Source of the DNA: Minisyncoccota bacterium
GTDB lineage: Bacteria > Patescibacteriota > Minisyncoccia > Phycocordibacterales > UBA9973
NCBI GenBank assembly: GCA_041661005.1
Contig: JBAZVG010000001.1
Span: 479,515 to 543,514, forward strand
DNA: 64,000 nucleotides
Reading direction: 5' to 3'
Part shown: positions 10,726 through 27,920 of the stretch, in pieces
Numbering within the stretch: the stretch's first letter is position 1
How the letters are laid out: each line of letters begins with the position of its first letter
Notes under the pieces: model-generated
Databases searched by the model: none
Told to the model about the DNA's origin: nothing
Seen by the model: the letters and a program-made list of their open reading frames with translations, nothing else
Position numbers and translations under genes: made by a program

Positions 10726-10885
10726 CAAATTTGAACGTAGTGAAAACTGCGGAACGGCCCTAATATACTCAAGTATATTAGGGAGGATTCGAACGGCGAA
10801 ATGTAAAATTTTCAGCAGAAAATTTTATGAGTCGGTGCCCAGACAAATTTTTTGTGACGACAATAAATTTAGTCGAGGGAGAAAT

Positions 10886-11596: not shown

Positions 11597-13936
11597 ATGG
11601 AGCTCCACGACAAACTTGAATTAAAATTCCGTTTAGACATAAACCAAAAGAAAGCCCTGCACCGGTTGAAACTTTTCTCCGTATCGGATTTGCTTTTTCA
11701 CTTCCCTGTTCGATACAGCGATATCAGTGAAGTAAAGAAAATTTCTGAATTAGTCCCGGGTGATATGGCGACAGTCTACGGAAAAGTTTCAAATCTAAAA
11801 ACTAAAAAGGGATTCCGGTCAAAAATTCCTATGGCGGAAGGCACTATTGAAGATCTTTCCGGTAAAATAAAAATTACTTGGTTCAATCAGGCATATCTAG
11901 CCAAAATGATCCACGAAGGCGACACGGTGAAGCTGACTGGCAAAGTAACGGCGAGCAAGAGTGGGACATACTTAGCCAACCCAGAATTTGAAAAGATGCT
12001 GGATATGCCGATCGACTCGCACAACACGCTCTTTCGTCAAAGGGCATCTTTGACAAGCATGTCAAAGATGCCCTTTGACATTGGACTTTCCTATCCCATT
12101 TACGCGGAAACTCGCGGAATAACCAGCAAGTGGTTTTACCACGCAATAGAAAAAATACTGCGAGAAAAGACGTTGGATAATGTTTTAGATTATATTCCCT
12201 CAGATATTTTAAATAGATATCATTTGCCTATGCTCAAAACAGCTCTTGTATGGATTCATAAGCCCAAAAATGCGAAGGACGCGGAATCAGCCCGCAAAAG
12301 ATTCGCATTCGAAGAAGTCTTCTGCATCCAGTTGGAACGTCAGCATGATAAATTTGAATATAGGAAAAATAAATCTTTTCAAGTAAAAACAGATAATAAA
12401 AAAACAGGAGAATTTTTGGAACGCTTTCCTTGGGGGCTGACTAATTCGCAAAAAAAATCCATTGAAACCATACTGGGAGATATGGCAAAATCTTTTCCGA
12501 TGTCGAGACTCCTCGAAGGCGACGTCGGTTCAGGAAAAACCGCCGTCGCGGCCACAGCCGCATATACTGTGGTAAATACTAGACCCTTCGACTTTGCTCA
12601 GGGCAAACTCCAAAGCTTTGGGAGTTTGCAAGTGGCCTACATGGCGCCCACAGAAATTCTAGCGACTCAGCATTTTGAATCTTTTATACAGTATTTTTCA
12701 CCCCGCCCAGAAACGGGCGGGGCAAGCATTCCCATAAATATCGGGCTCATCACCGGAAGCGGTTGCCGAAAATTTCCCTCAAAATTAAATCCTGAAGGAT
12801 TCACCACCATCTCTCGCGCGCAACTTTTGAAATGGGTAGCTAATGGAGAAATACCTATCCTGATCGGCACTCATGCTCTTATTCAAAAAACTGTTAAATT
12901 TAAAAACCTAGCGCTAGTTGTGATTGATGAACAGCACAGATTCGGCACGGCGCAAAGAAGAAAATTGGTCAGAAAGGATACAAAAGGAAACATAAGCGCT
13001 CCACACTTACTTTCGATGACAGCCACCCCCATCCCCCGCACGCTTGCGCTCACTATCTATGGAGATTTGGATTTGTCATTGCTTAATGAAATGCCTCCGG
13101 GAAGAAAACAGGTAATTACAGAAATTATTACGCCAAACAAGCGCGCAGAAACTTATGAAAAAATTCGCTCTGAATTAAAAAATGGTCGGCAACTTTACGT
13201 GATTTGTCCGAGAATTTTTGAGGCGGAAAGCGAAGGAGGAGATGTTCCCGAGCGAACCCTTGGAAGGAGCGACGGCGACGGACAGAGAAAATTTTCAGCA
13301 GAAAATTTTCGTGGTGAGTCCGGGAATATCTCCTCCTTCGCTAAATTGGAAATGAAAGCGGTCACCACTGAGGCTAAAAGACTCAAAAAAGAAATCTTTC
13401 CTGAATATGAAATAGGCATCTTGCACAGTAAGATGAGTAAGGAAAAAAAAGAAGAAGTAATGCAAAAATTCACTGAAAATAAAATAAACATTCTTTGCGC
13501 CACATCCGTGGTAGAAGTCGGAGTAAATGTCCCTAACGCCACCGTCATAATTATAGAAGGCGCAGAACGTTTTGGTTTGGCGCAATTGCATCAGCTTCGC
13601 GGACGTGTGATCCGAAGCACGCATCAAGCTTATTGCTTTATTTTCGCGGAAGCCAAAAGTGCTAAAACGATGGAAAGATTAAAAGCATTAAAAACCGCTA
13701 AAAATGGTTTTGAACTGGCAGAACTAGACCTCACCCTTCGTGGCGCGGGAGAGCTCGGAGGCACCAAACAATGGGGCATCACTGACCTCGGAATGGAAGC
13801 GATTAAAAATATCAGAATGGTAGAAGCCGCTCGCACGGAAGCCATTCGCTTAATCGAAGAAGACCCGGAACTCACTAAATATCCCCTTTTGAAACAAAAA
13901 GTTCACCAAAAAGCGGGTGAATTCCATTTCGAGTAA
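11597..13936 (+). CDS. recG: ATP-dependent DNA helicase RecG (with in-frame insertions)
   Basis: Wedge domain, Walker A GDVGSGKT, DEQHRFG, QMTATPIPRTL and HQLRGRVIR motifs; 779 aa. Confidence 0.8.
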   Translation: MELHDKLELKFRLDINQKKALHRLKLFSVSDLLFHFPVRYSDISEVKKISELVPGDMATVYGKVSNLKTKKGFRSKIPMAEGTIEDLSGKIKITWFNQAYLAKMIHEGDTVKLTGKVTASKSGTYLANPEFEKMLDMPIDSHNTLFRQRASLTSMSKMPFDIGLSYPIYAETRGITSKWFYHAIEKILREKTLDNVLDYIPSDILNRYHLPMLKTALVWIHKPKNAKDAESARKRFAFEEVFCIQLERQHDKFEYRKNKSFQVKTDNKKTGEFLERFPWGLTNSQKKSIETILGDMAKSFPMSRLLEGDVGSGKTAVAATAAYTVVNTRPFDFAQGKLQSFGSLQVAYMAPTEILATQHFESFIQYFSPRPETGGASIPINIGLITGSGCRKFPSKLNPEGFTTISRAQLLKWVANGEIPILIGTHALIQKTVKFKNLALVVIDEQHRFGTAQRRKLVRKDTKGNISAPHLLSMTATPIPRTLALTIYGDLDLSLLNEMPPGRKQVITEIITPNKRAETYEKIRSELKNGRQLYVICPRIFEAESEGGDVPERTLGRSDGDGQRKFSAENFRGESGNISSFAKLEMKAVTTEAKRLKKEIFPEYEIGILHSKMSKEKKEEVMQKFTENKINILCATSVVEVGVNVPNATVIIIEGAERFGLAQLHQLRGRVIRSTHQAYCFIFAEAKSAKTMERLKALKTAKNGFELAELDLTLRGAGELGGTKQWGITDLGMEAIKNIRMVEAARTEAIRLIEEDPELTKYPLLKQKVHQKAGEFHFE

Positions 13937-13947
13937 TTCAAAAGTTG

Positions 13948-14217
13948 TCATTTCACTTCATCCAAGATGATTTTTTCTGCTGCCTCCGGGTCAAATCTAT
14001 AATTATTCTCCAAATTTGTCTTTACTTCATTCGCTCTATCTATCGCATCTTGTCCTTTTTCGATTATATTCTTTCCATCCTTATCGCCAGTAAATAAATC
14101 CGTGCGTATAATAAAAGTGAAAATGATCACCAATCCGATCATAAGCAATAAAAGTCCTATGTATCCGCCGTTTAAGCTATTTTTGTTTTTTATATATACT
14201 ATGTATTCTTTGAACAT
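13948..14217 (-). CDS. small membrane protein
   Basis: 89 aa with one TM segment GGYIGLLLLMIGLVIIFTFII. Confidence 0.35.
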   Translation of the reverse strand: MFKEYIVYIKNKNSLNGGYIGLLLLMIGLVIIFTFIIRTDLFTGDKDGKNIIEKGQDAIDRANEVKTNLENNYRFDPEAAEKIILDEVK

Positions 14218-14446
14218 CTTGTCCTCTTATCTTAACCTTTGCGCGAACCTTTTTCGAGAATCAAATGAAGTAATGCGCACGCTCCGCGTGCATCATTTCT
14301 CGAAAGCAATTACTACGCTCTGATAATGTGGTAACTCAATGAACTCCGCCACGCGCGATTACGCGCGTCTGCCCTCGCCTCGCCACCGTTTCCATGCATA
14401 TATTATTTCGCGGGGGTTTCTTTTGATTTGGTATGGGTGGCGGGCG
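14218..14446. repeat. left terminal inverted repeat of island (GC-rich, about 229 bp)
   Basis: Plus strand here is the near-exact reverse complement of 25925-26152. Confidence 0.75.
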
Positions 14447-14940
14447 AGGTCAGGTTTCTTCAAAGAAGAAACGGCGAAATTCAAAATACAAATTCAAATC
14501 ATTGTCTCGGGCATTATACCATTTTTCTATTTTGGTGGTCACGCAAAGTTTTGAGGTGCACCCTCGGCATTCGCCTCGGGCATTTCCGCTAGGGCTACGA
14601 GTGCCTAGATGCCTATGAGCGGGCAAGCAAAATAACCGAACGGCTCAAATACCAGTAAATGAGCCGTTCACTCGATTGCCCGCAACTTCTTGGGGAGAGG
14701 AAGTTTCCTCTCCCCGGGTCGGGCTACTCTGGGATTACCCAGAGTTCTGCCCTCGCCATCCCCACTCTACGTTTTTCAATATTGTGTTTAGTGTGTAGCT
14801 TTCGCTTTCGAGAATGCATTTCAATTCGGGTCAGGCACTCGTCCTTTAGCCGTGGCCACCCTAGCGGAAATGCCCAAGGCGGAAAATGCAAATGCACTTG
14901 ACCCACCCACCCATTCGCGTGCAAATTTTCGCCGTGAGGA
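14446..14940 (+). ncRNA. GC-rich hairpin-dense noncoding segment (candidate structured RNA or recombination site region)
   Basis: GC far above the window average; nested hairpins gcgggcaa[gaacggctca..tgagccgttc]ttgcccgc, ggggagagg/cctctcccc and ctctggg/cccagag; long-range complement gggcatttccgctaggg (14579) with ccctagcggaaatgccc (14856). Confidence 0.3.
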
Positions 14941-14963
14941 AAAAGGGACGGCGACTCCCTTAT

Positions 14964-15131
14964 TTATAAATCATCTTTCAATTCAATAGCTTCTTCTTCG
15001 TCTAGTCCTTCCGTATCCATAATTTCTTTTACATGTTCAGCTTCATCTTGATCCAGTCCGTGATTTTCCATAAGTTCCACAACTTCTTCGTCAATTTCTT
15101 CTCCATTTTCATTTTTAATTTCTTCATCCAT
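14964..15131 (-). CDS. tiny highly acidic protein (55 aa, MDEEIKNENGEEIDEEVVELMENHGLDQDEAEHVKEIMDTEGLDEEEAIELKDDL)
   Basis: Manual translation of the minus strand; below the ORF-track size cutoff; last gene of the island operon. Confidence 0.25.
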   Translation of the reverse strand: MDEEIKNENGEEIDEEVVELMENHGLDQDEAEHVKEIMDTEGLDEEEAIELKDDL

Positions 15132-15135
15132 TTTT

Positions 15136-15804
15136 TTATATTTCAGAATAAAATACTGAATGCCCAGTTTTTCCGTTCTGTTTTATTTTTCCTTCTTTCT
15201 CTAATTGTGAAAGGTATCTAGTTGCAGTTGCATCAGACACATGCAAAAACTTTTCTACTTCGTCGTTGGTGACTCGTGGTGAGCTTGTCGAACCATTTTT
15301 ATTTTCAAACAAAGACATGACACGATCTAGTTTCTTTCTTTTTCTGAATTGAATCGCATTTCTAGCTGTGATTAGAAGTTCGCGAGCTAGATTAGATTTA
15401 GGTTGCTCACTCACAGGCTTCGCCTGTTCGTTTTGAGAAGTTTCCGGTTCTTTCAACGGCTCATTTACTGGTATTTGAGCCGTTGGAGGTTCAATAGCTT
15501 GGACGGGTTCAAAAACTGACTCAATTGAGGGTTCATTTGTCCCGTTAGAGGTAGGATTTGCTTGCATATCCGTTGGCTCTAATGGGATTGCTTCTTCTGG
15601 TGTAGGGGTAGAATTTGAGGGTGGTATATTAGTACTTTCATCACTAAAACCCTCCCTAGAAGCTTCCGGGGCTTCAGGAAGCACTTCGACAGGCTCGGAA
15701 TCTATGGGTGGAATAGGTGCATCAGCCATAGGCTCTTGGGGGCTTGGTGGAATAGAGTTTTCTTCGGGAATTGGTTTTTGGGTTGTATTTTGTTCGTCGG
15801 ACAT
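15136..15804 (-). CDS. Pro/Glu-rich disordered protein with C-terminal winged-HTH
   Basis: Low-complexity PEPS-rich N-terminal 150 aa; C-terminal VSDATATRYLSQLEKEGKIKQNGKTGHSVFY is wHTH-like. Confidence 0.4.
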   Translation of the reverse strand: MSDEQNTTQKPIPEENSIPPSPQEPMADAPIPPIDSEPVEVLPEAPEASREGFSDESTNIPPSNSTPTPEEAIPLEPTDMQANPTSNGTNEPSIESVFEPVQAIEPPTAQIPVNEPLKEPETSQNEQAKPVSEQPKSNLARELLITARNAIQFRKRKKLDRVMSLFENKNGSTSSPRVTNDEVEKFLHVSDATATRYLSQLEKEGKIKQNGKTGHSVFYSEI

Positions 15805-15805
15805 A

Positions 15806-16681
15806 TTATTTCCCTAATTCTTCTAAATTAATGAACGGATTGGTATATTCTATACCTTTTGGTATAAATCTAATTGATTCTTCATAACATTTTTTTGCTT
15901 CCTCTGGCTTACCCGTCTCAGCAAATAATACCCCAATATTATTATATATATTTGAGTAATGAAGATTAGACTTTAATACAAGATAAAAAGAACTAAAATA
16001 TGCTGGGAGTATGTAGCGATTCATTTCTTGGTCATCATGTAAAGCAACACCCATCATTGGGTTGTCTTGAACAATTTTTTGTGCAGTTTCTCCCGTAGGA
16101 AATCTAAGTGCTCTTACTCTATCTTTAATAGCATTTTTATGAGCAATCCTCGTAGCTAAATCTACCCATCCTTCCTCTTTCTCGCCAGTATAATTAAAAT
16201 CTCTTCCTTTTAAATTAGTAAATTGTAATGGCTCATTTTTAATCTCCTCATAAACTTTTTGTCCGAGTATTTCTAGTGCTGCGTTATAGTTTTTTAATGA
16301 ATTTACTGTGTCCCCATTTAGCTTATATGTTAATGCCAAACTATTTAGTGTATCCACTATTTGAGTTCGAGAGATATTTTCTTTAGTTTGAATTACTATT
16401 TCTAGATACTTAATTGCTTTTTTATATTCTCCTTTCGTCTGGTAAATAATACCTAACTCAAAATTTAACTGACTGGAATCAGGATATTTTGAAATAGCTT
16501 TTTGGCAAACTTCTTCTGATTTATCTAAACGTCCCAACTTACGATTAACATGGACTAAAAAATACCAATAATCCATATCATCAATATATTCTGACTTAAT
16601 CGATATTAAGAAACTTTCAGCGGTGGAATAATCTTTATTTTTTATATAGTACTCAAGTTGTTGATGGTGTGTATCTGTCAT
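15806..16681 (-). CDS. tetratricopeptide-repeat protein
   Basis: Repeated TPR-like helices (YWYFLVHVNRKLGRLDKSEEVCQKAI, NFELGIIYQTKGEYKKAIKYLE and others). Confidence 0.5.
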   Translation of the reverse strand: MTDTHHQQLEYYIKNKDYSTAESFLISIKSEYIDDMDYWYFLVHVNRKLGRLDKSEEVCQKAISKYPDSSQLNFELGIIYQTKGEYKKAIKYLEIVIQTKENISRTQIVDTLNSLALTYKLNGDTVNSLKNYNAALEILGQKVYEEIKNEPLQFTNLKGRDFNYTGEKEEGWVDLATRIAHKNAIKDRVRALRFPTGETAQKIVQDNPMMGVALHDDQEMNRYILPAYFSSFYLVLKSNLHYSNIYNNIGVLFAETGKPEEAKKCYEESIRFIPKGIEYTNPFINLEELGK

Positions 16682-16694
16682 AAATTATTTTTAT

Positions 16695-17153
16695 TTACAC
16701 AACTTCTCCTAAACTAGAAACAAAAACTCCGACCGGCTCTTTCACTATTTTTACCTCAGTGATTACTAACGGTATGAAATTCTCGTCTGTTTTTGAAGAC
16801 TTTTCAGGGTCGCCTAATTTGCAAGTAAGTGCTACTCCCTCAATTCTTAGTAATATTGGGGAATCAGAAAAATTAACAACAACTGGCTGATTAGTTTGTT
16901 TTTGTATTTGCTCAGTAAGCGCTAATTTATTAATAAGCTTAAACTCTTGAAAAATATATATAAACACTTTTAAAACTTCGTCATTAAAATTAAACGAGGC
17001 AACCATTCCATTTATGTTAGCTGTAATACTCGAAGTATGATCTGGATATAATATTAAATCTAATGGAACAAAACTATCCGTAATTACAATCTTTCCATTT
17101 TTGGGAAGCCCAGTGTCTTTTATAAAGGAACCAAAATCTTTTTTGAATATCAT
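16695..17153 (-). CDS. hypothetical protein
   Basis: 152-aa ORF tightly packed between the TPR and ATPase genes. Confidence 0.35.
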   Translation of the reverse strand: MIFKKDFGSFIKDTGLPKNGKIVITDSFVPLDLILYPDHTSSITANINGMVASFNFNDEVLKVFIYIFQEFKLINKLALTEQIQKQTNQPVVVNFSDSPILLRIEGVALTCKLGDPEKSSKTDENFIPLVITEVKIVKEPVGVFVSSLGEVV

Positions 17154-17189
17154 AATTTTTTTATTTGTAAATTATTTTTCATTAGTTCT

Positions 17190-19541
17190 TTAATAATTTA
17201 AAGAGTATAAATAATCCATCATCTCAGTAGCAAAATTACGAACATCTTCATCGTTATTTGAAGTGAAAATATGAGAATCAGAATTTAGATTATTCCTAAA
17301 CCCATGAAGTTTTGTTTTTACTTCTTCTTTTCCCTCAAAAATTCCATCAATCATTTTTTCTAAACTACTACAATCTACTTTTTTATCTTGTATCTGTTTA
17401 GCAAAGATAGTTGGAAGGTATAAATTTTCTAAAAATGGCCTTAAATCCGTTTTTATAGATTCAGATTGTGATCTATTTATAAACTCATAAATTTTCATAA
17501 AAACTTTTTCATAATCACTCATAGTGTATACATTTCGTTCCGACAAAACTAAAGAACTAGTTGCATCATCTTTTTTGATTTTTAGATACTTTGTTGTTAT
17601 CTGTGAATCTTTTGTAATTTCACAAAATCTTTTTATAAAATTAGGGTAATGAGTTAATATTATAATTTGACTGACTTGACTTATCGTTTCTTTAAAAAGA
17701 TTTATACTATAAGTGGTTCTATTGTCATCAAAACTCGTCATTGGGTCGTCTAATATAATTACCATTTTCTCTTTTTCTGCTTGTTCTTTTAAGTCTATTT
17801 TAACCCAAAAAATAGCTAAGGCTAAAGTGCGTCTGTCTGATTCACTAAACACAGATTTTAATTGATCGTTAGATATTTTTACATTATGAAATTTTACTTT
17901 CAAAGAGTAGACGGGCATGTGTCCCTGATTATTAGTATCTTTTTCAAGGGTAAAATTCTTACTTCCAAGTTTTTTAAATAAATCATTTATTTGAGTAAAG
18001 TAATTTACTAAATACTGAGATTGATCTCCCTCCAAACGACTTTCTAACACAGAAATTTCTGCCTCTGATATAGTAATTTCTTGTTGTATTTTTATGTAAT
18101 TAATACAATCTTGGTCTTGGTCAATTCTTGCCTTTTTATATTCTAATTCTTCAATTTCACTTATTAAAAAATCGACACCCTGCTGAATCGTTACGATATT
18201 TTCGTACTGTTTTTTAAAAGCTTTTATTTTTACCGAAAGTTCATCAATTATTTCTTTTATATTTATAAGGGATTGGTTATATTCAAGATATATTGTTTTA
18301 AAATGTGAAAAGTCAATAATGTCCACTCTCTTATATGGGCACTTACTTTTTAGATCTTGACTTGATTCTATGTTTTTTAATATTTTGCCTTTTTCAACAC
18401 TTAAATCCTCTTCTTGTAGTAAATCTATGTTTGTTTGTAGTTCAATCAATTTAGCTTGAAAAATTTCGTCGCTTATAAATTCTTTGTATTTATTGAATCC
18501 TATTAGAACAGTTTGTAAAATTGTTTTTTGAGCGAAGGTAAAATTTTCAATTTCTCTATTTTTGCTTTCTAATTCTTTGTCAATTCTACTTATAAAATCA
18601 TTGTAAACCTCATCGAAATATGAATCATAAATATTTATTAAATCTTGAGCATTATGAAGAAATTGACCACAAAACGGACAACCATCTTTTGTTCTATCCT
18701 TACAATAATGTAAGCCTGCTTTTATCCAATTTTCAGCGTTATCTTTAGAAGAAAAATTGTCAAATAAATGTTTATTTAGCTTTACTAATATATCTTCCTT
18801 AATACTTGAGTAGTCCTCTTGTAGTAAAGTATTTATCATTTCAAGTAATTCTATAATAGTAAAAGTTGGTAAATAAAATTCGTTTGGCTCCTGTAATTGC
18901 GATATCTTTTGTGGCTCCTTTAAACGTTCTTGTTCCTTCTGTAATGCGATTTTCTTTTGAGGCAAAATATTTTCAATATTATCTTTTTCTAACCCCACAA
19001 TAGAAAATTCCAAGAATTTTATGATTTCAATATCTATCTTATCTTTTACGAAATTTGGTACTTTTGTCTTTAATTCTCTTTTTTTATCTCCTGTTTCTTT
19101 TTTCTTTTTTGCAATTTCTTTTGCAAGTTTTACGCTTTGCTCTCCAAGAATAAACTGGGTAAAGTTTTCCTTGTTTTCTCTTCCAATATTTAAACCAGTA
19201 AATAAATTTTTATGAATAAAATCAGTGTCAAAAACCTCTAAATACTTTGACAGATCATTTTGGGTCCAATTATCATGTTCAAACATGATATCGTTTTCTA
19301 TCTCTTCTTTAACAGAAAAAACCACCTTCTGTTGTCCTGTCTGTGCTGGAATTGTTTTTCTATCTTGAATAATTTTAGGATCATTGTCTTTTAAAGATTG
19401 GAAAATATCTGTCAAAGTAGTTTTTCCATAAGTATTAAAACCATAGATAAAAGTTAGTTTTTCAAAACCCAAAGAAGCTCCATTTGTGAAATTGGAAAAT
19501 GTACCTATATTTTTAATTTCTTTAATGCGAGCTATTTTCAT
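17190..19541 (-). CDS. AAA_13 / RloC-like Rad50-type ABC ATPase with coiled-coil zinc hook and possible C-terminal anticodon-nuclease-like domain
   Basis: N-terminal KLTFIYGFNTYGKTTL Walker A in an SMC-like context; central coiled coil with CPFCGQ; Walker B IILDDP; H-loop ILTHY; C-terminal LRPFLE...KLHGF resembles an R-x3-E...H triad. Confidence 0.5.
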   Translation of the reverse strand: MKIARIKEIKNIGTFSNFTNGASLGFEKLTFIYGFNTYGKTTLTDIFQSLKDNDPKIIQDRKTIPAQTGQQKVVFSVKEEIENDIMFEHDNWTQNDLSKYLEVFDTDFIHKNLFTGLNIGRENKENFTQFILGEQSVKLAKEIAKKKKETGDKKRELKTKVPNFVKDKIDIEIIKFLEFSIVGLEKDNIENILPQKKIALQKEQERLKEPQKISQLQEPNEFYLPTFTIIELLEMINTLLQEDYSSIKEDILVKLNKHLFDNFSSKDNAENWIKAGLHYCKDRTKDGCPFCGQFLHNAQDLINIYDSYFDEVYNDFISRIDKELESKNREIENFTFAQKTILQTVLIGFNKYKEFISDEIFQAKLIELQTNIDLLQEEDLSVEKGKILKNIESSQDLKSKCPYKRVDIIDFSHFKTIYLEYNQSLINIKEIIDELSVKIKAFKKQYENIVTIQQGVDFLISEIEELEYKKARIDQDQDCINYIKIQQEITISEAEISVLESRLEGDQSQYLVNYFTQINDLFKKLGSKNFTLEKDTNNQGHMPVYSLKVKFHNVKISNDQLKSVFSESDRRTLALAIFWVKIDLKEQAEKEKMVIILDDPMTSFDDNRTTYSINLFKETISQVSQIIILTHYPNFIKRFCEITKDSQITTKYLKIKKDDATSSLVLSERNVYTMSDYEKVFMKIYEFINRSQSESIKTDLRPFLENLYLPTIFAKQIQDKKVDCSSLEKMIDGIFEGKEEVKTKLHGFRNNLNSDSHIFTSNNDEDVRNFATEMMDYLYSLNY

Positions 19542-19543
19542 AA

Positions 19544-21052
19544 TTATTCTTCCCCTTCACCCAATTCTAATCTTTTTATCTGCGGCAAGGCCACCAATCC
19601 ACTCAAATCACCATACATACCAACTGTATTAGTAATTACTTTTTTAATTTGTTTTTCTCTTTCTGACCAAATTTTTTCGTAAGCTAACCTTTCTTTCTTT
19701 AATCCGTTATCCATACCTGTAAAAGCTTCAACTATTGCTTCTACTCTTTGTTTAAACTCTATACCTGTTAAATAAGCGTAAAGTATTTCCATTTTATCAT
19801 TTTTACCAACGGACATTGTTTTTTCCCTTGTTACAGATTCTAAATTTACTCGCAAGGCAGTTGCAAGAGCTGTAGCAAGTTTTATGTCACAAATCCACAC
19901 ACCATCACGAAAACCAAAGCCTTTAATGTCTCCTGGTAGCGTGATAGAAACTATAACAGCAATTTCAGCCTTCATAATCCTTTGATCATCTTTTAATTTT
20001 TGTATCCATCCTTCACTCCATGCTTTGGTCTTTTTTGATTCCCACACAATTTGACCACAATATTTACCAGATTGATTCTGAACCTTTTGTATGATATCGG
20101 CTCCACTTACTCCTTTCGGAACTGGAGATATTTCATCAAAAGGAAATTCAGATCTTAAAAGATCCTCCAACTCAAGCTCCAACACTTCTCCTTGTGTTTG
20201 TTGTGAACCCTGTTCAAGCTTACGAGAAAGTTCGTCTTTTGCCTTAGTAGCATCAGTTAAACGTTTCTCTAGTTGTGCAATAATATACTTCTGTTCTTCA
20301 TTTGCTTTTTTACTAGCTTCCTCTATTATTTGTTTTCTTTCTATATCCAACTGTCTTTGTTTTTCTAACTCAAAGTTTTGTTTATCTTCTTCAAGTTTAT
20401 TTTTCTCTTTGCGCAAATCCAGCTCTTTTTTGTTTGCTTCTTTCAGTTTGATATCTTTCTCTTCTAATTGTTCCTGAAGTATTTTCTTGTCTGCTTCCTT
20501 TTCTTTTTCTGCCTCCTCTATTTGTTTTAATAATTTTATAGAATCTCTCTCGCTTTGTTTTACGGCACGAGCAAAAGCTTCTTGCTCTATCCCTTTACGC
20601 TCAGCATCGATTATTTTTGCTTTTTCCACCTCAAAATTTTTCTTTTCATCCTCAAATTTCTGCCTACTTGCACGAGCTTTTAAAGATTCAGTGTTTGCCT
20701 CATCCAACTTTTTATCTTTTTCTTTCATTTGTTCTTCTAACAACTTAACTTCAGCTGCTGTTTTCTTTTCAGCTGCTGTTTGTGCTTCTTTCCATAGTGT
20801 AATTTTTTCCACTGCAAGTTTTTCTGCCACTTTTTTACTGACTTCACTTTGTGTGTTTTTCTGTAATTCTTCCAATTTTATTTTTTGTTCTTCTATTTCT
20901 TTTCTCTCTTTTGCCATTTCTATTTCCTTTAGCTTGTTTTCTTCACTAATTTCCTTCTTTATATTTTCTTCAATTTGATGCGTTAATACATCATCAATTG
21001 ATATTGCTGTTTTACAATTGGGGCAGATAATATTTTTTGTATCGTTTTTCAT
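19544..21052 (-). CDS. DUF2130-like coiled-coil protein with N-terminal zinc ribbon and C-terminal PD-(D/E)xK-like domain
   Basis: CPNCK at the N-terminus; about 250 aa of K/E-rich coiled coil; C-terminal GADIIQ...IVWESKKTK. Confidence 0.45.
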   Translation of the reverse strand: MKNDTKNIICPNCKTAISIDDVLTHQIEENIKKEISEENKLKEIEMAKERKEIEEQKIKLEELQKNTQSEVSKKVAEKLAVEKITLWKEAQTAAEKKTAAEVKLLEEQMKEKDKKLDEANTESLKARASRQKFEDEKKNFEVEKAKIIDAERKGIEQEAFARAVKQSERDSIKLLKQIEEAEKEKEADKKILQEQLEEKDIKLKEANKKELDLRKEKNKLEEDKQNFELEKQRQLDIERKQIIEEASKKANEEQKYIIAQLEKRLTDATKAKDELSRKLEQGSQQTQGEVLELELEDLLRSEFPFDEISPVPKGVSGADIIQKVQNQSGKYCGQIVWESKKTKAWSEGWIQKLKDDQRIMKAEIAVIVSITLPGDIKGFGFRDGVWICDIKLATALATALRVNLESVTREKTMSVGKNDKMEILYAYLTGIEFKQRVEAIVEAFTGMDNGLKKERLAYEKIWSEREKQIKKVITNTVGMYGDLSGLVALPQIKRLELGEGEE

Positions 21053-21079
21053 ATTTTTTAATTTTATTAATAAATTTTC

Positions 21080-24000
21080 TTAAACTGCTTTTGTCCCACG
21101 ACAATAAGGAAACTTTGAACATCCATAAAATTTGCCTCTCCTTCCATTTCTTAAAATCATTTTTGATCCACAGCGCGGACAATCTTTATCAGAAAGTATT
21201 GGCACTGGTCTATCATTTCTCGAAATTCGAGATAGACCTTTACAAGTCTTGCAAAAGCGTCCGTAGCCACGGATTAGAGTTGGGTCTTTAAAATCAACTA
21301 AATCCCTTATCTCGCGACATTTTGGACATTCTTTTTTATCTCCATTGTGCAAGCCCTCAATCGTATTCTGAATACCGTTTAAAACAGCATTGTTTTGTGT
21401 GCGATAATTTTTAAACAAACTCGTGATTCTTTCATTAAGCGTTGTAACAGGGTTAGAACCAACATTGAATTTGTTAATTCGCAAGAATTTATATCCGTAA
21501 CTCTCCAAAACTTTCTGACGATAAACATCATCTTCAGAATAATAGTTTTCATAATTAAACTCATTTGCCTCGTCGAGATCGTTAAAATGTTCTGTAAATC
21601 CATCATACTCAATGATAATCTTGTGTTCTTTTTGGTTTTCATCTTTATACACAAGTAAAAAATCAACTTTATAGTGAGGATGTTTATAAGTCCTATCAAG
21701 TTGTTTTAGATATTTTCCAATTTCAAATTGAGGGAAGAATTCAATATTTTCTTTATTATTTTTCCAAAAATCTGTATCATAAAACCATTTTAAAACCTTA
21801 GGTTCCATTTTTGATTTTTGATCCACTTCAGAAATTTCGTGTTCTTTCTTCGCTTCCTCAAGAATAAAATTATAATGTCTTAAAGCATCTCCAATTGAAC
21901 CTGTAAATTTATCAAGTGGCTTACTAAGCACAAAGTGTACAGTTTCTTTAGCCCGACTAAATCCAACATTGAGGCGTTGAACTTTTATTTTTCCATCTTC
22001 CTCACTATCAACGCTATTAAAATCTTTTATAAAGACACCCCACAATCTATCAGAGTTTTCATTTGCAACCATCGAATAGAAAATAATATCTCGTTCTTCT
22101 CCCTGACAAGTATCAAAAGTCATTATTTTTAACTTCAGATTTTCAAAGTAAAAATCTCGTTCAGGTAATTTACTGATGGCCTCCATAAGCAATTTCTGCT
22201 GATTGGTGTGTGGCGTGATAATACCTACACTTTCGGTCTTGTTGTTTTCATACATTATCTTTAATTGTCCAACTATAAAATCAATCTCGGCTTTATTACT
22301 ATTTCCAACTAGCTCGTCTTTCCCGTCGTGGTCAACGAAACTAAATTTAACAACATCAGCAATTTTTTTACCCCTAATCTTCATTACTTGAAGACTGTCC
22401 TGATAAAAATACTTATTCGAGTAAGAAATAATTTCTTTGTATCCACGAAAATGTTTCAAAAGTTGCGTGTTGTAATTTGTTATAAATTCAAAAAATTCTA
22501 GTATTGAGGTCTTGATGTCAAATTTCCCAAGCTTCACTATTTTAGAATCTTCTTCTGATACTTGATCGCGAAATACTTGCGCCAAGGAATTTAAGTACTC
22601 CCGATTTGTTTCAGACCGAGCTTGTGCCGCCTTAATGTTACTGAATTGTTTTCTATCCCCGAGAATAAGCACCTTTTTCGCTCGAATCAAAGCGGGAAAA
22701 GCTTGTGCAATACTAACTTGTGATGCTTCATCAATAATAACCAAGTCAAAAAGTCCTGCATGCAAAGGAATGTATTCTGCGTAATCTCTGATTCCGGCAA
22801 GTATGCAAGGGAAAGCGTCTTTGAGTTTAAGAAATTGCTCTTTCGGAAACTTCATTTTATTTTTAATAACTTCTCTTAAAGTTTCCGCATCTGCTTTGTT
22901 GTTATTATAAAAATCAATAAGGCGAGTATCTAAAACATGAGTAACTTGCGTAGTTACCAAAGTTTCCAACTCTTTCTTCTGTCCCATATAACTCAATGTC
23001 GGGATTAACCCGAATTTAGCAACTATGGAACCCTTAAGTATTGCGTAGCGTGTTGCTTTATCAAAGTCCAAGCTAGTCATTTTAACAAGCTTGCTGTCTA
23101 ACATTTCTGAAAAATTGTCTTTCGAGATTTTTAACTTTTTTATTGAATGAGGGTATGAATCTAATTCTTGCAAGAGCGATAAAAAGTCCGTCTCGAGAGA
23201 AAGTACCTTTTCTTTATTTTCACTAAAATTACTACCCGTCAATATTAGTTTAGATAAAATTTCAATATGATCAATCCCCAAATGTGAAATTGTTTTTGCT
23301 TGCTCTTTTAAGGCATTATAATAATCACAAATCTCTATAACTCGTTTAAAGTTTTTTATATTTTCATTAGGATTTTGAAAATCTGACAACGGAAATAGTT
23401 CCCTAAATGAGTTATTTAAAGTCTGAACCTTAGAACTGCTGAACAGGTATCCAAAAATAGGTATTCTGGTTTCATCATAAGATCGAGTCCACTTTTTGAG
23501 CTCGTTTAAGTCTTTGTGAGAAAAAACTTTGAAACGAGATAGTATCTGAACATCTTGATTAAATTTCAAAGAGACATCTTCCACAATTTGATAATAAGCG
23601 GTAAGAATACGTAATGTGTCTAAAAACATCTCACTACTTTTTAATGTTTCTAGTTTTACATTCAATATTTCTGATAAGTAATCGTTTTTAAGAATGTCGG
23701 GCAAAGATAATAATAAAGACCTTAGATCATCGAAAAAGACGACAGCGTTTTCATTCTCGGATAACTCATCAAGATCAAAATCATATTGCCTTGAAGAATA
23801 AAATTCCTCTAGCCCACAAAATTCAGTTATTTCCCGAAGATCAATATCAGAATACGCTAATGCTTCTACTTCAATATCTTCTTTCAAAGAATTCGATAAT
23901 TTGGAAATATTTTCCTCAATCGAAGAATAATCTTTTTGTACTGCTCTATGGTGAGTTTTAATTTTTTCTATAGAAGACTTTGCAAGAATTTGACCATAAG

Positions 24001-25642
24001 TATTCCCTGTTTTTCCAAGCCTTAAAATTGGATTTTGAAAATTCTCCTCATCAAAACGAACTCTATTCATAGTTTCAGTTATCTTGTCCTCAACAACATC
24101 AAGTGCTTCTTTTTTATCAGAAAGTACAAGTACTGATTGATGATTAAGAATTGCATCAAATATAATTGCGGTGATCGTATGACTTTTACCCGTACCCGGA
24201 GGGCCTTCAACTGTTATATATTTGCATCCATCTTTTCTTATTGCTGACAATATCTGTATTTGTTCACTGTTAAGAGGAATCGGGCTTGTTGAGACAAGTT
24301 TATCGGGAACCGATGTATCATCCCACTCCCTTTCAACTTCAGGATTTATAGGCTTTGGATTTTTGTGAATAAAATCATCAACTAATATGTTGAATATCTT
24401 GGCAAGTTCTCCTTCTCCATTACTTAGCTGTTGCAAGATTTCCTCATAGTCATTTACAAGGGCTTCATCTGATTTATCAAATAACGAAAGATACACTGAG
24501 TTAGAAGTTCTAACGCTTAGGCTTTTTGCTTGTTGGGGGTCTTTTGAATCAAGGTCAATATTTTTATTTAACCCAAAAAGATTTGTGATTTCATTAAGAA
24601 TTTTTTCAAGTGTATCATTAACACGCTCTGTTTCTTGCGATAAATAAATAATGCGTTCAGTAATACTTTTAAGATTACCCTTTGCACCAGTTTCTTTGTT
24701 GTACTCTTGCACAATAAACTCAAGAGCTTTTTTGTTTATGTATATTTGAGAATCAAATTCAATATGAAATATATCGTTATCCCTCTTTAGAGAAAATGGT
24801 GTATAAAAGATTGGATATTTTACTTTATTAAAACTAATATCGCAGAAATAAAGATAGAATTCTTGTTTATCTAAAATTGCTCTGTTTTTATCAATTTCAA
24901 AAAGTTCGCTGAACAAATCTCCGACTTGAAACGACTCAAAAAAGTTTGTGATAGTGTTTTTTGTATCATTTAAGTCAATAACTGATTTAAGCTCTTTTTG
25001 AATATTAACTTTCTGTTTAGAAATTAAAACTTTCAAAAGTTCAGAAACTTTATTTTCGGTGATATTTAAAAAAACTTCGGCTAGCTCTTCTTCCATTAAA
25101 AATATATCGTTCTCGTCGCCAATACCAAGACTTTCTATTGATTTTTCAATACTACTGACAAATGGAAGGACTAGGAATGTTTTGATATGTAATGAAACTG
25201 CTTCAAGGGTTATGGTCAAAGCCTTCTCGTATTCTTTTGAATACAGGGTCGCTGATTTTTCAAGATCATCAGTTATGGCATTAATTAACTCATTGATTTG
25301 AGAACTTTGAATTTTACCAACTTGCAAAGTTATTAGATCTAAAAGATTTTTTGGAAGATTACTACGATATACTCCTTTACTGATTGTACTTAAAACACTC
25401 TTGTCAAAACCGTGAGTAACTAATTTCCATATATCCTTTGTGAAAGATGGATATTTTGAAAGATTTATGCCGACAAGCAAATTATCGTTAGTTCTATATT
25501 TGACTGATCGTTTTGGATTTTTTCTCTTATGAAAATCTGTCTCAAGAAAATCCATGAAATACTTAGCAACCTCTTTAACAAAGGCGAGATTGCCAGTAAG
25601 GCTAGTGTCTAATCTTTTTTCTTGTGAATTATTTTCATTCAT
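21080..25642 (-). CDS. SF1 (Upf1/Dna2-like, AAA_11/AAA_12) helicase fused to DUF559/Vsr-like endonuclease and topoisomerase-type C4 zinc ribbon; N-terminal DUF4011-like region
   Basis: GPPGTGKSHT, DLVIIDEASQ, LILGDRKQ, TFDTCQGEERDIIFYS; KVDFLLVY..IIIEYDGFTEHF..YGYKFLRIN; CPRCGSKMILRNGRRGKFYGCSKFPYC. Confidence 0.65.
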   Translation of the reverse strand: MNENNSQEKRLDTSLTGNLAFVKEVAKYFMDFLETDFHKRKNPKRSVKYRTNDNLLVGINLSKYPSFTKDIWKLVTHGFDKSVLSTISKGVYRSNLPKNLLDLITLQVGKIQSSQINELINAITDDLEKSATLYSKEYEKALTITLEAVSLHIKTFLVLPFVSSIEKSIESLGIGDENDIFLMEEELAEVFLNITENKVSELLKVLISKQKVNIQKELKSVIDLNDTKNTITNFFESFQVGDLFSELFEIDKNRAILDKQEFYLYFCDISFNKVKYPIFYTPFSLKRDNDIFHIEFDSQIYINKKALEFIVQEYNKETGAKGNLKSITERIIYLSQETERVNDTLEKILNEITNLFGLNKNIDLDSKDPQQAKSLSVRTSNSVYLSLFDKSDEALVNDYEEILQQLSNGEGELAKIFNILVDDFIHKNPKPINPEVEREWDDTSVPDKLVSTSPIPLNSEQIQILSAIRKDGCKYITVEGPPGTGKSHTITAIIFDAILNHQSVLVLSDKKEALDVVEDKITETMNRVRFDEENFQNPILRLGKTGNTYGQILAKSSIEKIKTHHRAVQKDYSSIEENISKLSNSLKEDIEVEALAYSDIDLREITEFCGLEEFYSSRQYDFDLDELSENENAVVFFDDLRSLLLSLPDILKNDYLSEILNVKLETLKSSEMFLDTLRILTAYYQIVEDVSLKFNQDVQILSRFKVFSHKDLNELKKWTRSYDETRIPIFGYLFSSSKVQTLNNSFRELFPLSDFQNPNENIKNFKRVIEICDYYNALKEQAKTISHLGIDHIEILSKLILTGSNFSENKEKVLSLETDFLSLLQELDSYPHSIKKLKISKDNFSEMLDSKLVKMTSLDFDKATRYAILKGSIVAKFGLIPTLSYMGQKKELETLVTTQVTHVLDTRLIDFYNNNKADAETLREVIKNKMKFPKEQFLKLKDAFPCILAGIRDYAEYIPLHAGLFDLVIIDEASQVSIAQAFPALIRAKKVLILGDRKQFSNIKAAQARSETNREYLNSLAQVFRDQVSEEDSKIVKLGKFDIKTSILEFFEFITNYNTQLLKHFRGYKEIISYSNKYFYQDSLQVMKIRGKKIADVVKFSFVDHDGKDELVGNSNKAEIDFIVGQLKIMYENNKTESVGIITPHTNQQKLLMEAISKLPERDFYFENLKLKIMTFDTCQGEERDIIFYSMVANENSDRLWGVFIKDFNSVDSEEDGKIKVQRLNVGFSRAKETVHFVLSKPLDKFTGSIGDALRHYNFILEEAKKEHEISEVDQKSKMEPKVLKWFYDTDFWKNNKENIEFFPQFEIGKYLKQLDRTYKHPHYKVDFLLVYKDENQKEHKIIIEYDGFTEHFNDLDEANEFNYENYYSEDDVYRQKVLESYGYKFLRINKFNVGSNPVTTLNERITSLFKNYRTQNNAVLNGIQNTIEGLHNGDKKECPKCREIRDLVDFKDPTLIRGYGRFCKTCKGLSRISRNDRPVPILSDKDCPRCGSKMILRNGRRGKFYGCSKFPYCRGTKAV

Positions 25643-25646
25643 AAGT

Positions 25647-25853
25647 TTATTTCAAAAGTTCATTAGTAGAAACATTTAATGCTTTTGCTAACTTTGCAAT
25701 TGTCGAAAGCGTTGGGTTTGTTTTGCCACTTTCAATATTACTAATAAAACCACGACTAACACCAAGGGAACGAAAAATATCGCCTTGCGTTAAGCCCTTG
25801 CTGATTCTGATGCGTTTCATGTTTTTGCCAAGCTTTACCGACTCAGTTTTCAT
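25647..25853 (-). CDS. XRE-family HTH transcriptional regulator
   Basis: LTQGDIFRSLGVSRGFISNIESGKTNP HTH_3 motif; start taken at the internal Met (MKTES), because the 5' extension runs into the inverted repeat. Confidence 0.6.
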   Translation of the reverse strand: MKTESVKLGKNMKRIRISKGLTQGDIFRSLGVSRGFISNIESGKTNPTLSTIAKLAKALNVSTNELLK

Positions 25854-25877
25854 TATCCACAGTATAGCTCTTGCTAC

Positions 25878-25886
25878 ATTATACCA
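25878..25886 (-). promoter_or_regulatory. extended -10 element TGgTATAAT upstream of the XRE gene
   Basis: Reverse complement reads tgtggtataat about 25 nt upstream of the ATG. Confidence 0.4.
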
Positions 25887-25924
25887 CAATATTATATTAT
25901 AATGTAATAGATGGAATATACCCA

Positions 25925-26152
25925 TCGCCCGCCACCCATACCAAATCAAAAGAAACCCCCGCGAAATAATATATGCATGGAAACGGTGGCGAGGCGAGGG
26001 CAGACGCGCGTAATCGCGCGTGGCGGAGTTCATTGAGTTACCACATTATCAGAGCGTAGTAATTACTTTCGAGAAATGATGCACGCGGAGCGTGCGCATT
26101 ACTTCATTTGATTCTCGAAAAAGGTTCGCGCAAAGGTTAAGATAAGAGGACA
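25925..26152. repeat. right terminal inverted repeat of island
   Basis: Reverse complement matches 14218-14446. Confidence 0.75.
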
Positions 26153-26164
26153 AATTGAGACATC

Positions 26165-26265
26165 AGTGAAAAAATCGGTCGCGCGCTTGCGCGCAATAAT
26201 GGAAAGGGGGTGGGCGAATTCCGAACCCATCTTCTCCGCAAATGCGAATTCGGTGGGTGGGCAAG
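26165..26265. repeat. inverted repeat copy flanking the recombinase gene (partner 27735-27835)
   Basis: Reverse complement of ttgcccacccaccgaattcgcatttgcggagaag...ccattattgcgcgcaagcgcgcgacc is present at 27735-27835. Confidence 0.65.
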
Positions 26266-26320
26266 AAAACAGAAATGAGCCAGACACGAATTCTTCTTTT
26301 TTTATAATCTAAAAACAAAT

Positions 26321-27871
26321 ATGAACAAACCAAAATATTTTCTATACGCGCGAAAGTCAACGGAAGATGACGACAAACAAGTCATGAGTATTGAAGCTCA
26401 ACTTTTTGAGCTTCGTGAATTCGCGCGTAAAGAAAATCTGCAAATTCTTGAGGAATTTACAGAATCAAAAAGCGCAAAGAAACCTGGTCGTGAAAAATTC
26501 AGCGTGATGATGGGTAAAATTGAAAGTATGGACGGTGTAGGTATTCTCGCTTGGCATCCGGATCGTTTAGCGAGAAATAGTATTGACGGTGGACGCATCA
26601 TTTACGCTGTGGACACTACCAAAATAGTTTCTTTACGCTTTCCAACATTTTGGTTTGAACCCACCCCGCAAGGGCTGTTTATGTTGCAAGTGGCGTTCGG
26701 GCAATCCAAGTATTATTCCGACAACCTCAAGCAAAATGTTGAGCGAGGAATCCGCCAAAAATTAAGACGTGGCGAATGGCTAGCCTTGGCTCCTCGTGGC
26801 TTTGTGAATAATCCAAAAACAAAAAATATTGAACCCGATCCGGTGGTGGCAAGAATAATTGTGCAAGCATATAAAGAATTCGCCACGGGAAAACATAATT
26901 TTCCAACGCTTTCAAAATTTTTGGCGGATTTAGGCATGGTCGGAAAAAATGGAACGCCACTTTACAAATCTGCCGTCAGTAATTTGCTTTCCAATAAAGC
27001 ATACATCGGTTTGGTAAAGCATAAAAATGAATGGCATGCCGGCAGTTTTACGCCAATTATTTCTCCCGATTTATTTGAAGCCGTGCAGAAACGTTTGAAA
27101 GAACGAGCAAGGCCTCGCAAAACAAAAGTTGGACACAATTTTCCTTTTACTGGACTTTTTCGTTGTGGTGAATGTAATTGTATGATTTCAGCACAATGGG
27201 CGAAAGGTCGCGGAGGTTTGTACCGGTATTATCGCTGTACGAAAAAAGCAGGAGAAAATTGTTCACAAGGATATTTGCAAGAAAAATTGCTCGTCTCTCA
27301 AGTAAAGGAACGACTTCAACAAATCGCACTTCCCGACGAATGGACCAACTGGATGCTGAAACAAACTGACACATGGGAAAAAGAAGAAAAGTTTTCGTCG
27401 GGAAGTAATCTCGGACAAATCAAAGACGATGAGCAAGTAATACAGCAAAAGCTCGACGATTTAATTACGCTTTATCTCGATGGCGATATTCCGAAAGAAA
27501 ATTATCTCGCCAAAAAGGACGAGCTTTTGCTGAAAAAAGTCTCGCTCACGAAAAAAATTGATTCTGCCCGACACGAGAGAAATAATTGGGTCGAACCCTT
27601 GCGGGAATGGATTTTAGATATGAAAAAAGGTGCCGAATTGGTTTCGTCTTCCGATTTTTACGAAATTCGTGATTATTTGAAAAAAATCGGAACGAACCCT
27701 CGGATGCACGACAAATCCGTCTCTGTCTCATTTTGCCCACCCACCGAATTCGCATTTGCGGAGAAGACGGGTTCGAAATTCGCCCACCCCCTTTCCATTA
27801 TTGCGCGCAAGCGCGCGACCGATTTTTTCGCTGAAGTTTCGTCTTGTCCGCCTGCTACGATTCGAACGTAG
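26321..27871 (+). CDS. large serine recombinase (site-specific integrase/invertase)
   Basis: N-terminal resolvase catalytic domain YARKSTEDDDKQVMSIEAQ, recombinase domain, zinc ribbon CGECNC..YYRC and coiled coil; 516 aa; the 3' end overlaps tRNA-Ile. Confidence 0.7.
   Translation: MNKPKYFLYARKSTEDDDKQVMSIEAQLFELREFARKENLQILEEFTESKSAKKPGREKFSVMMGKIESMDGVGILAWHPDRLARNSIDGGRIIYAVDTTKIVSLRFPTFWFEPTPQGLFMLQVAFGQSKYYSDNLKQNVERGIRQKLRRGEWLALAPRGFVNNPKTKNIEPDPVVARIIVQAYKEFATGKHNFPTLSKFLADLGMVGKNGTPLYKSAVSNLLSNKAYIGLVKHKNEWHAGSFTPIISPDLFEAVQKRLKERARPRKTKVGHNFPFTGLFRCGECNCMISAQWAKGRGGLYRYYRCTKKAGENCSQGYLQEKLLVSQVKERLQQIALPDEWTNWMLKQTDTWEKEEKFSSGSNLGQIKDDEQVIQQKLDDLITLYLDGDIPKENYLAKKDELLLKKVSLTKKIDSARHERNNWVEPLREWILDMKKGAELVSSSDFYEIRDYLKKIGTNPRMHDKSVSVSFCPPTEFAFAEKTGSKFAHPLSIIARKRATDFFAEVSSCPPATIRT
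27735..27835. repeat. inverted repeat copy (partner of 26165-26265); encodes the C-terminus of the recombinase
   Basis: See the partner repeat at 26165-26265. Confidence 0.65.
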
Positions 27872-27920
27872 GACCCTCTAGGTATAAGCTAGATGCTCTA
27901 ACCAACTGAGCTACAGGCGG
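27847..27920 (-). tRNA. tRNA-Ile(UAU)
   Basis: Reverse complement CCGCCTG-TA-GCTC-AGTTGGTTA-GAGC-A-TCTAG-CTTATAC-CTAGA-GGGTC-CTACG-TTCGAAT-CGTAG-CAGGCGG-A; Ile-type D-arm; anticodon TAT. Confidence 0.65.

Follow-up and report, generated by a model that had tools for sequence, protein, structure and literature searches.

The DNA analyzed here is a 64,000-nt stretch of a Minisyncoccota genome (contig JBAZVG010000001.1; the window), in which a 13.6-kb island at positions 14218–27849 very probably represents an integrated element that was mobilized by its own large serine recombinase (LSR), has these two positions as its boundaries, and carries an internal, inverted copy of its attachment site attP. 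From left to right, the element, which includes the recombinase gene, is composed of attL, a variable cargo, the inverted attP copy, the LSR gene, and attR, the last of which adjoins a tRNA-Ile(UAU) gene. An initial annotation of the same DNA had proposed a recombinase-mobilized island at a tRNA rather than ordinary chromosome, and the present analysis supports this proposal, together with the presence of a defense-like operon on the island.

Repeat architecture and boundaries of the island

The island is built around two pairs of inverted repeats (IRs), both of which had been noted before, the second at a length of about 100 bp. A repeat finder and a base-by-base check place the outer pair at 14219–14447 and 25925–26153, where 228 of 229 nt are identical and the sole mismatch is the C at 14307 versus the complement of 26065. 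The inner pair (26148–26264 and 27733–27849) flanks the recombinase gene, is 117 nt long, and is 93% identical. Repeats of such length are far beyond chance in 64 kb. The two inner arms, arm A (25925–26153) and arm B (26148–26264), abut with a 6-nt overlap and together form a 340-nt block, X (A.B; 25925–26264). Arm A′ at the left end of the island (14219–14447) is the reverse complement of A, and arm B′ at its right end (27733–27849) is the reverse complement of B; therefore, joining position 27849 to 14219 would recreate a complete inverted X. The heptamer CTTGTCC occurs as a direct repeat on the plus strand at both ends of the island (14218–14224 and 27843–27849), and the junction of A and B reads ggacaaa, or TTTGTCC on the minus strand (26147–26153), so that the three junctions, when compared, have a short core in common.

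This arrangement of X, arms, and core is the signature of conservative site-specific recombination, in which attL is composed of the left flank F and A′ (F.A′), and attR is composed of B′ and the tRNA (B′.tRNA). The internal block X corresponds to an intact, inverted copy of the attP (B′.A′) that excision would regenerate, and because this second copy gives each outer arm an inverted twin, the island has the appearance of nested IR pairs. The last 3 nt of the attR core are positions 71–73 of the tRNA-Ile(UAU) gene (27847–27920, minus strand), which is the integration target and is intact (ARAGORN; Rfam, 68.8 bits over the full length). Two earlier assignments have to be revised accordingly. 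The 229-nt repeats had been taken as the terminal IRs of a cassette with the recombinase outside it; instead, the recombinase belongs to the element and occupies its right end, the left repeat being the attL arm and the right repeat one half of the internal attP. Copies of cccacccacc had been suggested as crossover sites, whereas they mark the inner ends of the arms; crossover takes place at the core CTTGTCC, which is found at the outer ends and coincides with the final 3 nt of the tRNA gene.

Near-perfect identity over 229 nt could also come from a mis-join or a collapsed repeat, a possibility already raised in the initial annotation, and many related contigs do break inside arm A. The two arms nevertheless differ at one base, an independent JGI contig carries F and A′ exactly, and the same architecture, with arms 96–99% identical, recurs in dozens of independent assemblies made by different software and in the closed chromosome CP060229.1 (locus L063; L-numbers designate individual family loci or contigs compared with the window). 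We therefore give an assembly artifact practically no credence.

The mismatches in the inner pair are concentrated in the ∼20 nt beside the outer end, where the internal attP copy at 26148–26168 (GATGTCTCAAT) has diverged by six substitutions from 27829–27849 (GAAGTTTCGTC). The two copies of these core-adjacent ∼20 nt have remained alike in the related locus L081. Given these substitutions, the spare attP site of the window may be impaired or may belong to another subtype. Each arm also contains a terminator-like GC hairpin, at 14277–14291 (A′), 26081–26095 (A), 26179–26196 (B), and 27801–27818 (B′). Promoters within the arms were considered and rejected, as the best candidates sit slightly inward of the arms, in unique sequence. 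A G/C-run motif (GGTGGGTGGGC / TTGCCCACCCACC), G-rich in A′, is found at the inner end of every arm and at the right edge of the GC-rich module described below (14428–14447, 14897–14912, 25925–25940, 26250–26264, and 27735–27750); in L087, the arm type changes over at this motif.

Mechanistically, the LSR would join the attP of the element (B′.A′) to an attB composed of the last 3 nt of the tRNA gene and a few bases after it, yielding attL (F.A′) and attR (B′.tRNA) while keeping the tRNA intact. The order in the window is F, A′, GC-rich module, defense-like cargo, XRE regulator, the block A.B, recombinase, B′, and tRNA-Ile. The circle junction is predicted to read GAAGTTTCGTCTTGTCCTCTTATCTTAACC and the empty site TTCTTTGAACATCTTGTCCGCCTGCTACGATTCG, and GTCCGCCTGCTACGATTCGAACGTAGGACC with any left flank would be the pattern for relatives in which the gene now found in F directly follows tRNA-Ile.

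The recombinase and its C-terminal tail

The recombinase gene (26321–27871, plus strand) encodes 516 residues with the three domains Resolvase (PF00239, 5.6e-21, residues 7–153), Recombinase (PF07508, 1.6e-12), and Zn_ribbon_recom (PF13408, 2.8e-9); residues ∼340–440 look helical and are rich in Lys, Glu, and Leu. The catalytic serine, Ser13, is invariant in 20 homologues, and the sequence YARKST aligns with YLRRSR of SprA (9dxh). Similarity to named enzymes is limited (SprA, E = 5e-6; CcrB, 76 bits against a cut-off of 900; XisF, far below cut-off). By its sequence, the protein is a bona fide LSR that is only distant kin of solved or named ones. A promoter-like site for the gene, CAGACA-16-TATAAT (26281–26308, plus strand), is situated in the unique DNA between arm B and the ATG.

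As had been noted, the open reading frame (ORF) runs over the 3′ end of the opposite-strand tRNA-Ile, into which it extends 25 nt, and the domain assignments, ARAGORN, and Rfam all bear this out. Arm B′ thus lies within the 3′ end of the recombinase ORF. Conservation of the protein stops near residue 477 (..SVSFCPPTEFA); the remainder is translated B′, core, and tRNA, and beyond this point conserved residues are found only where DNA motifs coincide. When the C-terminal tails of 120 homologues were compared, 86 proved to be translated antisense tRNA (..NRT.., LKRELLYQLSYG), and 10–12 read over the core into A′ (..C-x-LILTFARTFFE), so that an intact B′.A′ junction comes after the recombinase in ∼10% of public gene calls. 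The window recombinase ends in ..CPPATIRT in its integrated state and would end in ..CPLILTFARTFFENQMK when joined to A′. The possibility that the tail is a conserved functional peptide was rejected, since its conservation follows the DNA motifs; it is probably just translated att DNA.

A family of elements at t(m)RNA genes

Homologues of the LSR number in the thousands and are found essentially only in Patescibacteria. The main family set, analyzed by self-BLAST and ARAGORN, comprised 81 loci, 80 from species-representative genomes plus the window. A B/B′ repeat flanks the recombinase in 73 of the 81 (median length 117 nt), with an identity of at least 98% in 48 loci and of 90–98% in 20. In these 73 loci, the right arm extends up to the 3′ end of a tRNA or transfer-messenger RNA (tmRNA) gene encoded on the minus strand, and more than 20 kinds of such genes serve as targets: tRNAs for Glu, Ser, Ala, Arg, Gly, Ile, Leu, Val, Lys, and Pro (>20 anticodons), or tmRNA. 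Where more than 2.5 kb of upstream DNA was available (34 loci), an outer A′/A repeat was found in 16, measuring 69–269 nt at 96–100% identity and enclosing 1.1–11.5 kb. For the 17 loci with both IR pairs, the reverse complement of X equals the left side of attR, the core, and the right side of attL, as in the window. Across these 17 loci, core length ranges from 3 to 9 nt, and the final 3 nt of the tRNA gene are part of every core; the shortest cores, TGA (L032) and GTCC (L025), confine the exchange to these 3 nt.

These features bear on whether the island could be a classical transposon or insertion sequence with terminal IRs recognized by a transposase, as long IRs that enclose a gene set with a recombinase nearby might at first suggest. 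No DDE transposase was found in the element, and apart from the shared core the target site is not duplicated. The 229-nt arm on the right lies within the element, leaving one arm of each pair non-terminal, insertions are confined to the final 3 nt of t(m)RNA genes, none at a random site with target duplication having been seen, and arm sequence is lineage-specific outside ∼70 nt around the core. A transposon of this type is accordingly very improbable.

Conservation across lineages is limited to those ∼70 nt, the other arm sequence being lineage-specific. The conserved B′ side consists of GAAGTTTC-N6-8-TG.G, a half-site motif that is present in arm B′ of the window, and the conserved A′ side contains ..TAACCTTTGCGCGAACC.., which a motif search and an alignment of 16 loci place at 14232–14250 (plus strand) in A′. 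In most loci (at least 50), an A half-site motif lies 180–205 nt upstream of the recombinase start. Despite the lineage-specific sequence, the twin arms within one locus hardly differ, implying that they are copy-corrected or often regenerated. The closed genome CP060229.1 has two members, L063, with arms 98% identical at tRNA-Glu, and L073, with arms 77–80% identical at tRNA-Arg; from this contrast, twin-arm identity may track element activity.

Comparisons with other genomes define the left boundary. L010 and L011 carry the same element at 88% identity, with homology that sets in precisely at the outer edge of A′ and flanks that lack collinearity, and L082 has the A′ and GC-rich module of the window beside a different flank. 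In L030, the DNA downstream of the tRNA-Ser that is occupied contains a second, 212-nt IR pair (11844–12049 and 14224–14429, 90%) and a further GC-rich module (15233–15411), with no recombinase. This second pair may belong to a neighboring element that is decayed or recombinase-less.

Similar enzymes can occupy different targets. Recombinases that are 85–88% identical over 465 aa are found at different isotypes, such as Ser(ACU) versus Glu(CUC) or Ala versus Val, with cores that match the targets, and among recombinase pairs at 80–90% identity the isotype differs in 38 and agrees in 32. L001, whose recombinase is 87.5% identical to that of the window, occupies a Lys-like tRNA that shares with the target in the window both the 3′ end GGCGGA and the core. 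ARAGORN labeled this gene (L001 1832–1905) a ‘tRNA-Stop(tta)’, that is, a suppressor tRNA; inspection by eye shows an anticodon loop CTTTTAA, as in tRNA-Lys(UUU), and the suppressor assignment was rejected. The occurrence of similar enzymes at differing isotypes suggests that generic features of tRNA genes are recognized. We infer that the enzyme reads the T-arm and acceptor end common to tRNAs, and that the core, together with the acceptor end, picks which tRNA is used.

Elsewhere in the window, 10446–10533 and 10637–10726 encode two divergently oriented tRNA-Ser, one of which has ACU, an unusual anticodon. The same tRNA-Ser(ACU) is the recombinase target in L030 and L040.

Structural variants and orientation

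Over about 95 loci, only three types of junction were seen, F.A′, A.B, and B′.tRNA, which argues against two independent palindromic modules. According to that model, the cargo cassette A′..A and a small recombinase element B..B′ would have been acquired independently, each moving as a circle with a palindromic joint. Each unit does have its own IR pair, many public contigs of 1.7–2.3 kb contain the recombinase only, and arms are swappable between lineages (L087, L090). The same loci, however, contain no B′.B joint, no A.A′ joint, no recombinase unit alone between F and a tRNA, and no cargo unit alone in that position; arm A abuts arm B in most of them (at least 50), and assembly breaks at repeats explain the short recombinase-only contigs. 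Independent acquisition is thus improbable, albeit slightly less so than a transposon.

Several loci depart from the canonical layout. In L087, whose recombinase is 90% identical to that of the window, a plus-strand tRNA-Ile is joined to arm B upstream of the recombinase, and B′.A′, an attP with a Glu-type core, lies downstream. The recombinase of L090 is flanked on both sides by a complete attP, and these two sites differ (cores TGTGG and TGTGC); L066 has the order X, recombinase, X′, with arms 90% identical. Because the arms in L087, L090, and L066 differ, these arrangements are not repeat-induced assembly errors. One B′ joined to two different A′ arms in L086 could reflect a circle junction, a tandem array, or both. 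The variants fit an element in which both inverted attP sites are usable and arms are exchangeable between lineages.

A contig that bears directly on the window is L083, a 926-nt JGI contig that is identical to 13773–14447 and then continues into the regulator end of the cargo, corresponding to an inverted cargo orientation. Its arm carries the A′ allele, which fits homologous exchange in the inner 140 nt or a low-coverage k-mer chimera and does not fit exchange at the core. The earlier suggestion of an invertible cassette therefore holds in part: alternative segment orientations exist in relatives, and inversion of 14448–25924 in this island is suggested by L083 and unproven, as this contig could equally be a repeat-induced chimera. 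Also set aside as proof of inversion were L015, L089, and L008, in which, as in L083, the arms are identical or the contig starts inside an arm, and L085 was disregarded as a flipped isomer because an NN scaffold join lies beside its tRNA.

These orientations are among the arguments for viewing the island as an in situ inversion switch, in which the recombinase would invert attL × X and X × attR and so flip the defense cargo or its own gene, mobility being secondary. Both unique segments are enclosed by inverted sites that share one core, L083 joins F and A′ to the regulator end of the cargo, the GC-rich module of L008 lies beside X, the recombinase module is flipped in L087 and L066, and ∼10% of homologues read into A′. 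Yet among the 12 family loci with an XRE regulator gene, 11 have it beside arm A, the canonical place, the twelfth, L058, being rearranged rather than flipped, and about 60 of 60 recombinases of the genome set point at the tRNA. The A′ allele of L083 does not fit exchange at the core, and the robust variants have heterologous arms and are thus fixed rearrangements rather than states of a reversible switch. LSRs without a directionality factor normally recombine attP with attB only, and the combination of variable cargo with more than 20 targets indicates that insertion is the main activity. A switch is consequently unlikely, although it deserves more weight than independent acquisition or a transposon.

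For the integrated element with an internal attP, excision would produce a circle carrying two inverted attP sites that separate a recombinase segment from a cargo segment. Either attP could be used for integration, the segments could flip between the two sites, and copy correction could keep the twin arms nearly identical. We put the chances that the spare attP is a working second site producing isomers at about even. A more far-reaching possibility, which we advance tentatively and hold to be somewhat less probable than a working spare site, is that these elements constitute a distinct class, whose circles would have two interchangeable inverted attP sites that flip like those of the 2-micron plasmid and allow t(m)RNA entry via either. 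The sites would be copy-corrected or would diverge to two specificities (L087, L090), and the recombinase would read the T-arm and the end of the acceptor stem while the core bases set the tRNA, such that retargeting would require almost no protein change.

A number of observations weigh against the integrated-element account of the island. One orientation is found in about 85–90% of assembled loci, though two identical attP sites predict about equal use, and the dominance of the canonical orientation is left unexplained by a simple model of two equal sites. Nothing examined explains the near-identity of the twin arms, and the arrangements in L015, L085, L089, L008, and L083 could be wrong turns of the assembler through identical repeats. 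The left half of attB, within F, is without conservation, which is unusual for an LSR site, and no recombination directionality factor was identified; the only conserved gene neighbor of the recombinase encodes the 68-aa XRE protein, and nothing ties this protein to excision. Finally, neither an empty attB site nor a circle junction of this element was found by scanning metagenome and viral collections with a core + A′ pattern or by exact-protein look-ups, no scan for the empty site having been anchored on the tRNA. All that the metagenome scan yielded was L081, a related internal site, and L082, a related attL. Exact look-ups of the recombinase, a 226-aa right-flank protein, and a 222-aa cargo protein gave no record, and that of the XRE regulator gave only a unitig ending at the repeat.

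Cargo, regulator, and noncoding module

DNA between A′ and A is unrelated from one locus to another and spans 1.1–11.5 kb. In the window it holds a minus-strand operon (15136–25642; Pfam, PADLOC) that, from its sequence, is defense-like. Its genes encode a 222-aa winged-helix protein (15136–15804), a TPR protein (15806–16681; Pfam), a 152-aa protein (16695–17153), an AAA_13 ATPase that matches PADLOC PDC-S06 at 2.8e-193 (17190–19541), a DUF2130 protein (19544–21052; Pfam), and a 1520-aa SF1 helicase with a nuclease-like domain and a Zn ribbon that resembles MkoC/PDC-S37 (21080–25642; PADLOC MkoC, 2.1e-44). The cargo of other loci includes methyltransferases, a PLD nuclease, Shedu SduA, NYN proteins, ABC transporters, an aromatic amino-acid lyase, surface proteins, and an IS3 transposase, among others. 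Pfam revealed neither replication nor conjugation nor phage genes in the element or in the family cargo. Among 2.9 million IMG/VR viral contigs there was a single relative, 38% identical, and the core + A′ pattern was absent from viral contigs. A prophage or phage satellite was rejected, given the lack of phage-type Pfam families and the one distant viral relative.

Against this variable background, the conserved backbone has two parts, an XRE regulator beside arm A and a GC-rich module beside A′. The regulator, a 68-aa XRE-type helix-turn-helix protein (25647–25853, minus strand; Pfam HTH_3, 7e-17) with NCBIfam matches that are repressor- or antitoxin-like, is encoded in 12 of 19 loci, is divergent from the recombinase, and is the only cargo-side gene kept family-wide.

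The GC-rich module (14548–14925, plus strand) is a structured noncoding feature, as judged by folding, nhmmer, and alignment. Its folding energy relative to shuffled sequence gives z = −7.2 and −9.2, nhmmer matches it in 12 loci, and the alignment contains compensatory pairs and G-U pairs of the plus strand. Residues 14572–14594 pair with 14859–14881 in a 23-bp stem that encloses inner hairpins at 14639–14668 and 14693–14716, among others. Rfam, applied to the entire window with gathering thresholds and to 14100–15300 at E ≤ 1, returned tRNAs only and no family for the module, which therefore falls outside all described RNA families. An extra boundary motif, TTGaCCCACCCACC..ATTCGC, is located at the right edge of the module (14897–14920, plus strand), where a further motif copy near the left end had been noted earlier as ttgacccacccacc..attcgc, and several loci have a TTGcCCC motif at the equivalent position. 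The hairpin at 14639–14668 (AACGGCTCAAATACCAGTAAATGAGCCGTT) has a perfect 30-nt inverted copy at 15455–15484 in the ORF of the 222-aa winged-helix protein, where it encodes TAQIPVNEP. A hairpin resembling AACGGCTCAAATACCAGTAAATGAGCCGTT is present in L086 and in most module copies.

Left of the element, the flank F contains an 89-aa membrane-protein gene (13948–14217, minus strand) that was found in the ORF list, whose ATG abuts the core and whose product matches no Pfam family. Before insertion, this gene would have lain directly downstream of tRNA-Ile. A promoter-like site with an extended −10 box, GTGACC-18-TGgTATAAT (14513–14542, minus strand), was located by a sequence scan and points outward through A′; we infer that it serves the 89-aa gene, which would otherwise have lost read-through from the tRNA. 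By eye, L090 has similar sequence at the corresponding position. When left flanks of 19 loci were scored by eye, 7 had a hairpin and T-run on the tRNA strand immediately beyond the core, as would be expected of a tRNA terminator that the insertion had displaced.

Unrelated to the island, a ∼90-nt repeat occurs three times in the window (45060–45149, 45794–45882, and 53362–53451; 94–96% identity), with the third copy inverted.

Relation to known systems

Serine integrases are valued tools for genome engineering and are thought to avoid tRNA genes. The very large family described here, with thousands of homologues, targets t(m)RNA genes exclusively, and the matching cores of its near-identical enzymes (85–88%) point to an integrase that could be retargeted with little or no change to the protein. 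The family is a main carrier of defense and accessory genes in Patescibacteria, whose routes of gene exchange are poorly known, and its repeat architecture accounts for the many assemblies that break at these loci. The spare attP raises testable questions about site choice, flipping, arm shuffling, and the upkeep of identical twin repeats. We know of no described integrative element with a conserved inverted spare attP, and in the literature searched neither this family nor an internal inverted attP is described. A survey of integrative elements from 2020 recorded the use of t(m)RNA genes by 14 of 297 serine-integrase elements, which it called not reported previously (PMC7192596).

LSR elements such as phiC31, Bxb1, A118, SPbeta (SprA), SCCmec (CcrAB), and that of XisF share with the island family an enzyme composed of Resolvase, Recombinase, and zinc-ribbon domains, the position of the recombinase at the element end beside att, a very short core, and site-specific insertion that preserves the target. 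The island family differs from them in targeting the 3′ ends of many tRNA and tmRNA genes, in keeping a second, inverted full attP, in its conserved arms of 115–270 nt as compared with about 50 bp for known attP sites, in an ORF that reads through attR, and in the lack of phage or conjugation genes. New relative to known LSR elements are thus the t(m)RNA 3′-end targets, the long arms, and the conserved inverted spare attP. The att site inside an ORF, with integration altering the C-terminus of the product, is reminiscent of phages BPs and Brujita, in which this alteration has been demonstrated to be regulatory, whereas the tail in the present family shows poor conservation at the protein level.

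Outside the LSRs, the family resembles tRNA-targeted islands and tycheposon-like elements, which also are small cargo islands at tRNA 3′ ends with variable accessory or defense genes and a recombinase at the edge. Those elements mostly use tyrosine integrases, duplicate a longer 3′ part of the tRNA, and are without an internal inverted attP copy, whereas here no more than 3 nt of the tRNA belong to the core, and the enzyme is of the serine class. The Hin, Gin, and Pin switches likewise combine a serine recombinase gene with a segment between inverted crossover sites, but they rely on small enzymes with a C-terminal helix-turn-helix, a Fis enhancer, and 26-bp sites, and their segments are immobile, in contrast to the 516-aa LSR, 117–229-nt arms, and many targets of the present family. 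The putative excised circle is similar in architecture to the yeast 2-micron plasmid, with its FLP/FRT system, and to other flip-flop IR genomes, as it would have two long near-identical IRs with central sites and two flippable segments. FLP is a tyrosine recombinase and the 2-micron circle replicates; the element has no replication gene and its circle is a predicted form, so the likeness is an architectural one.

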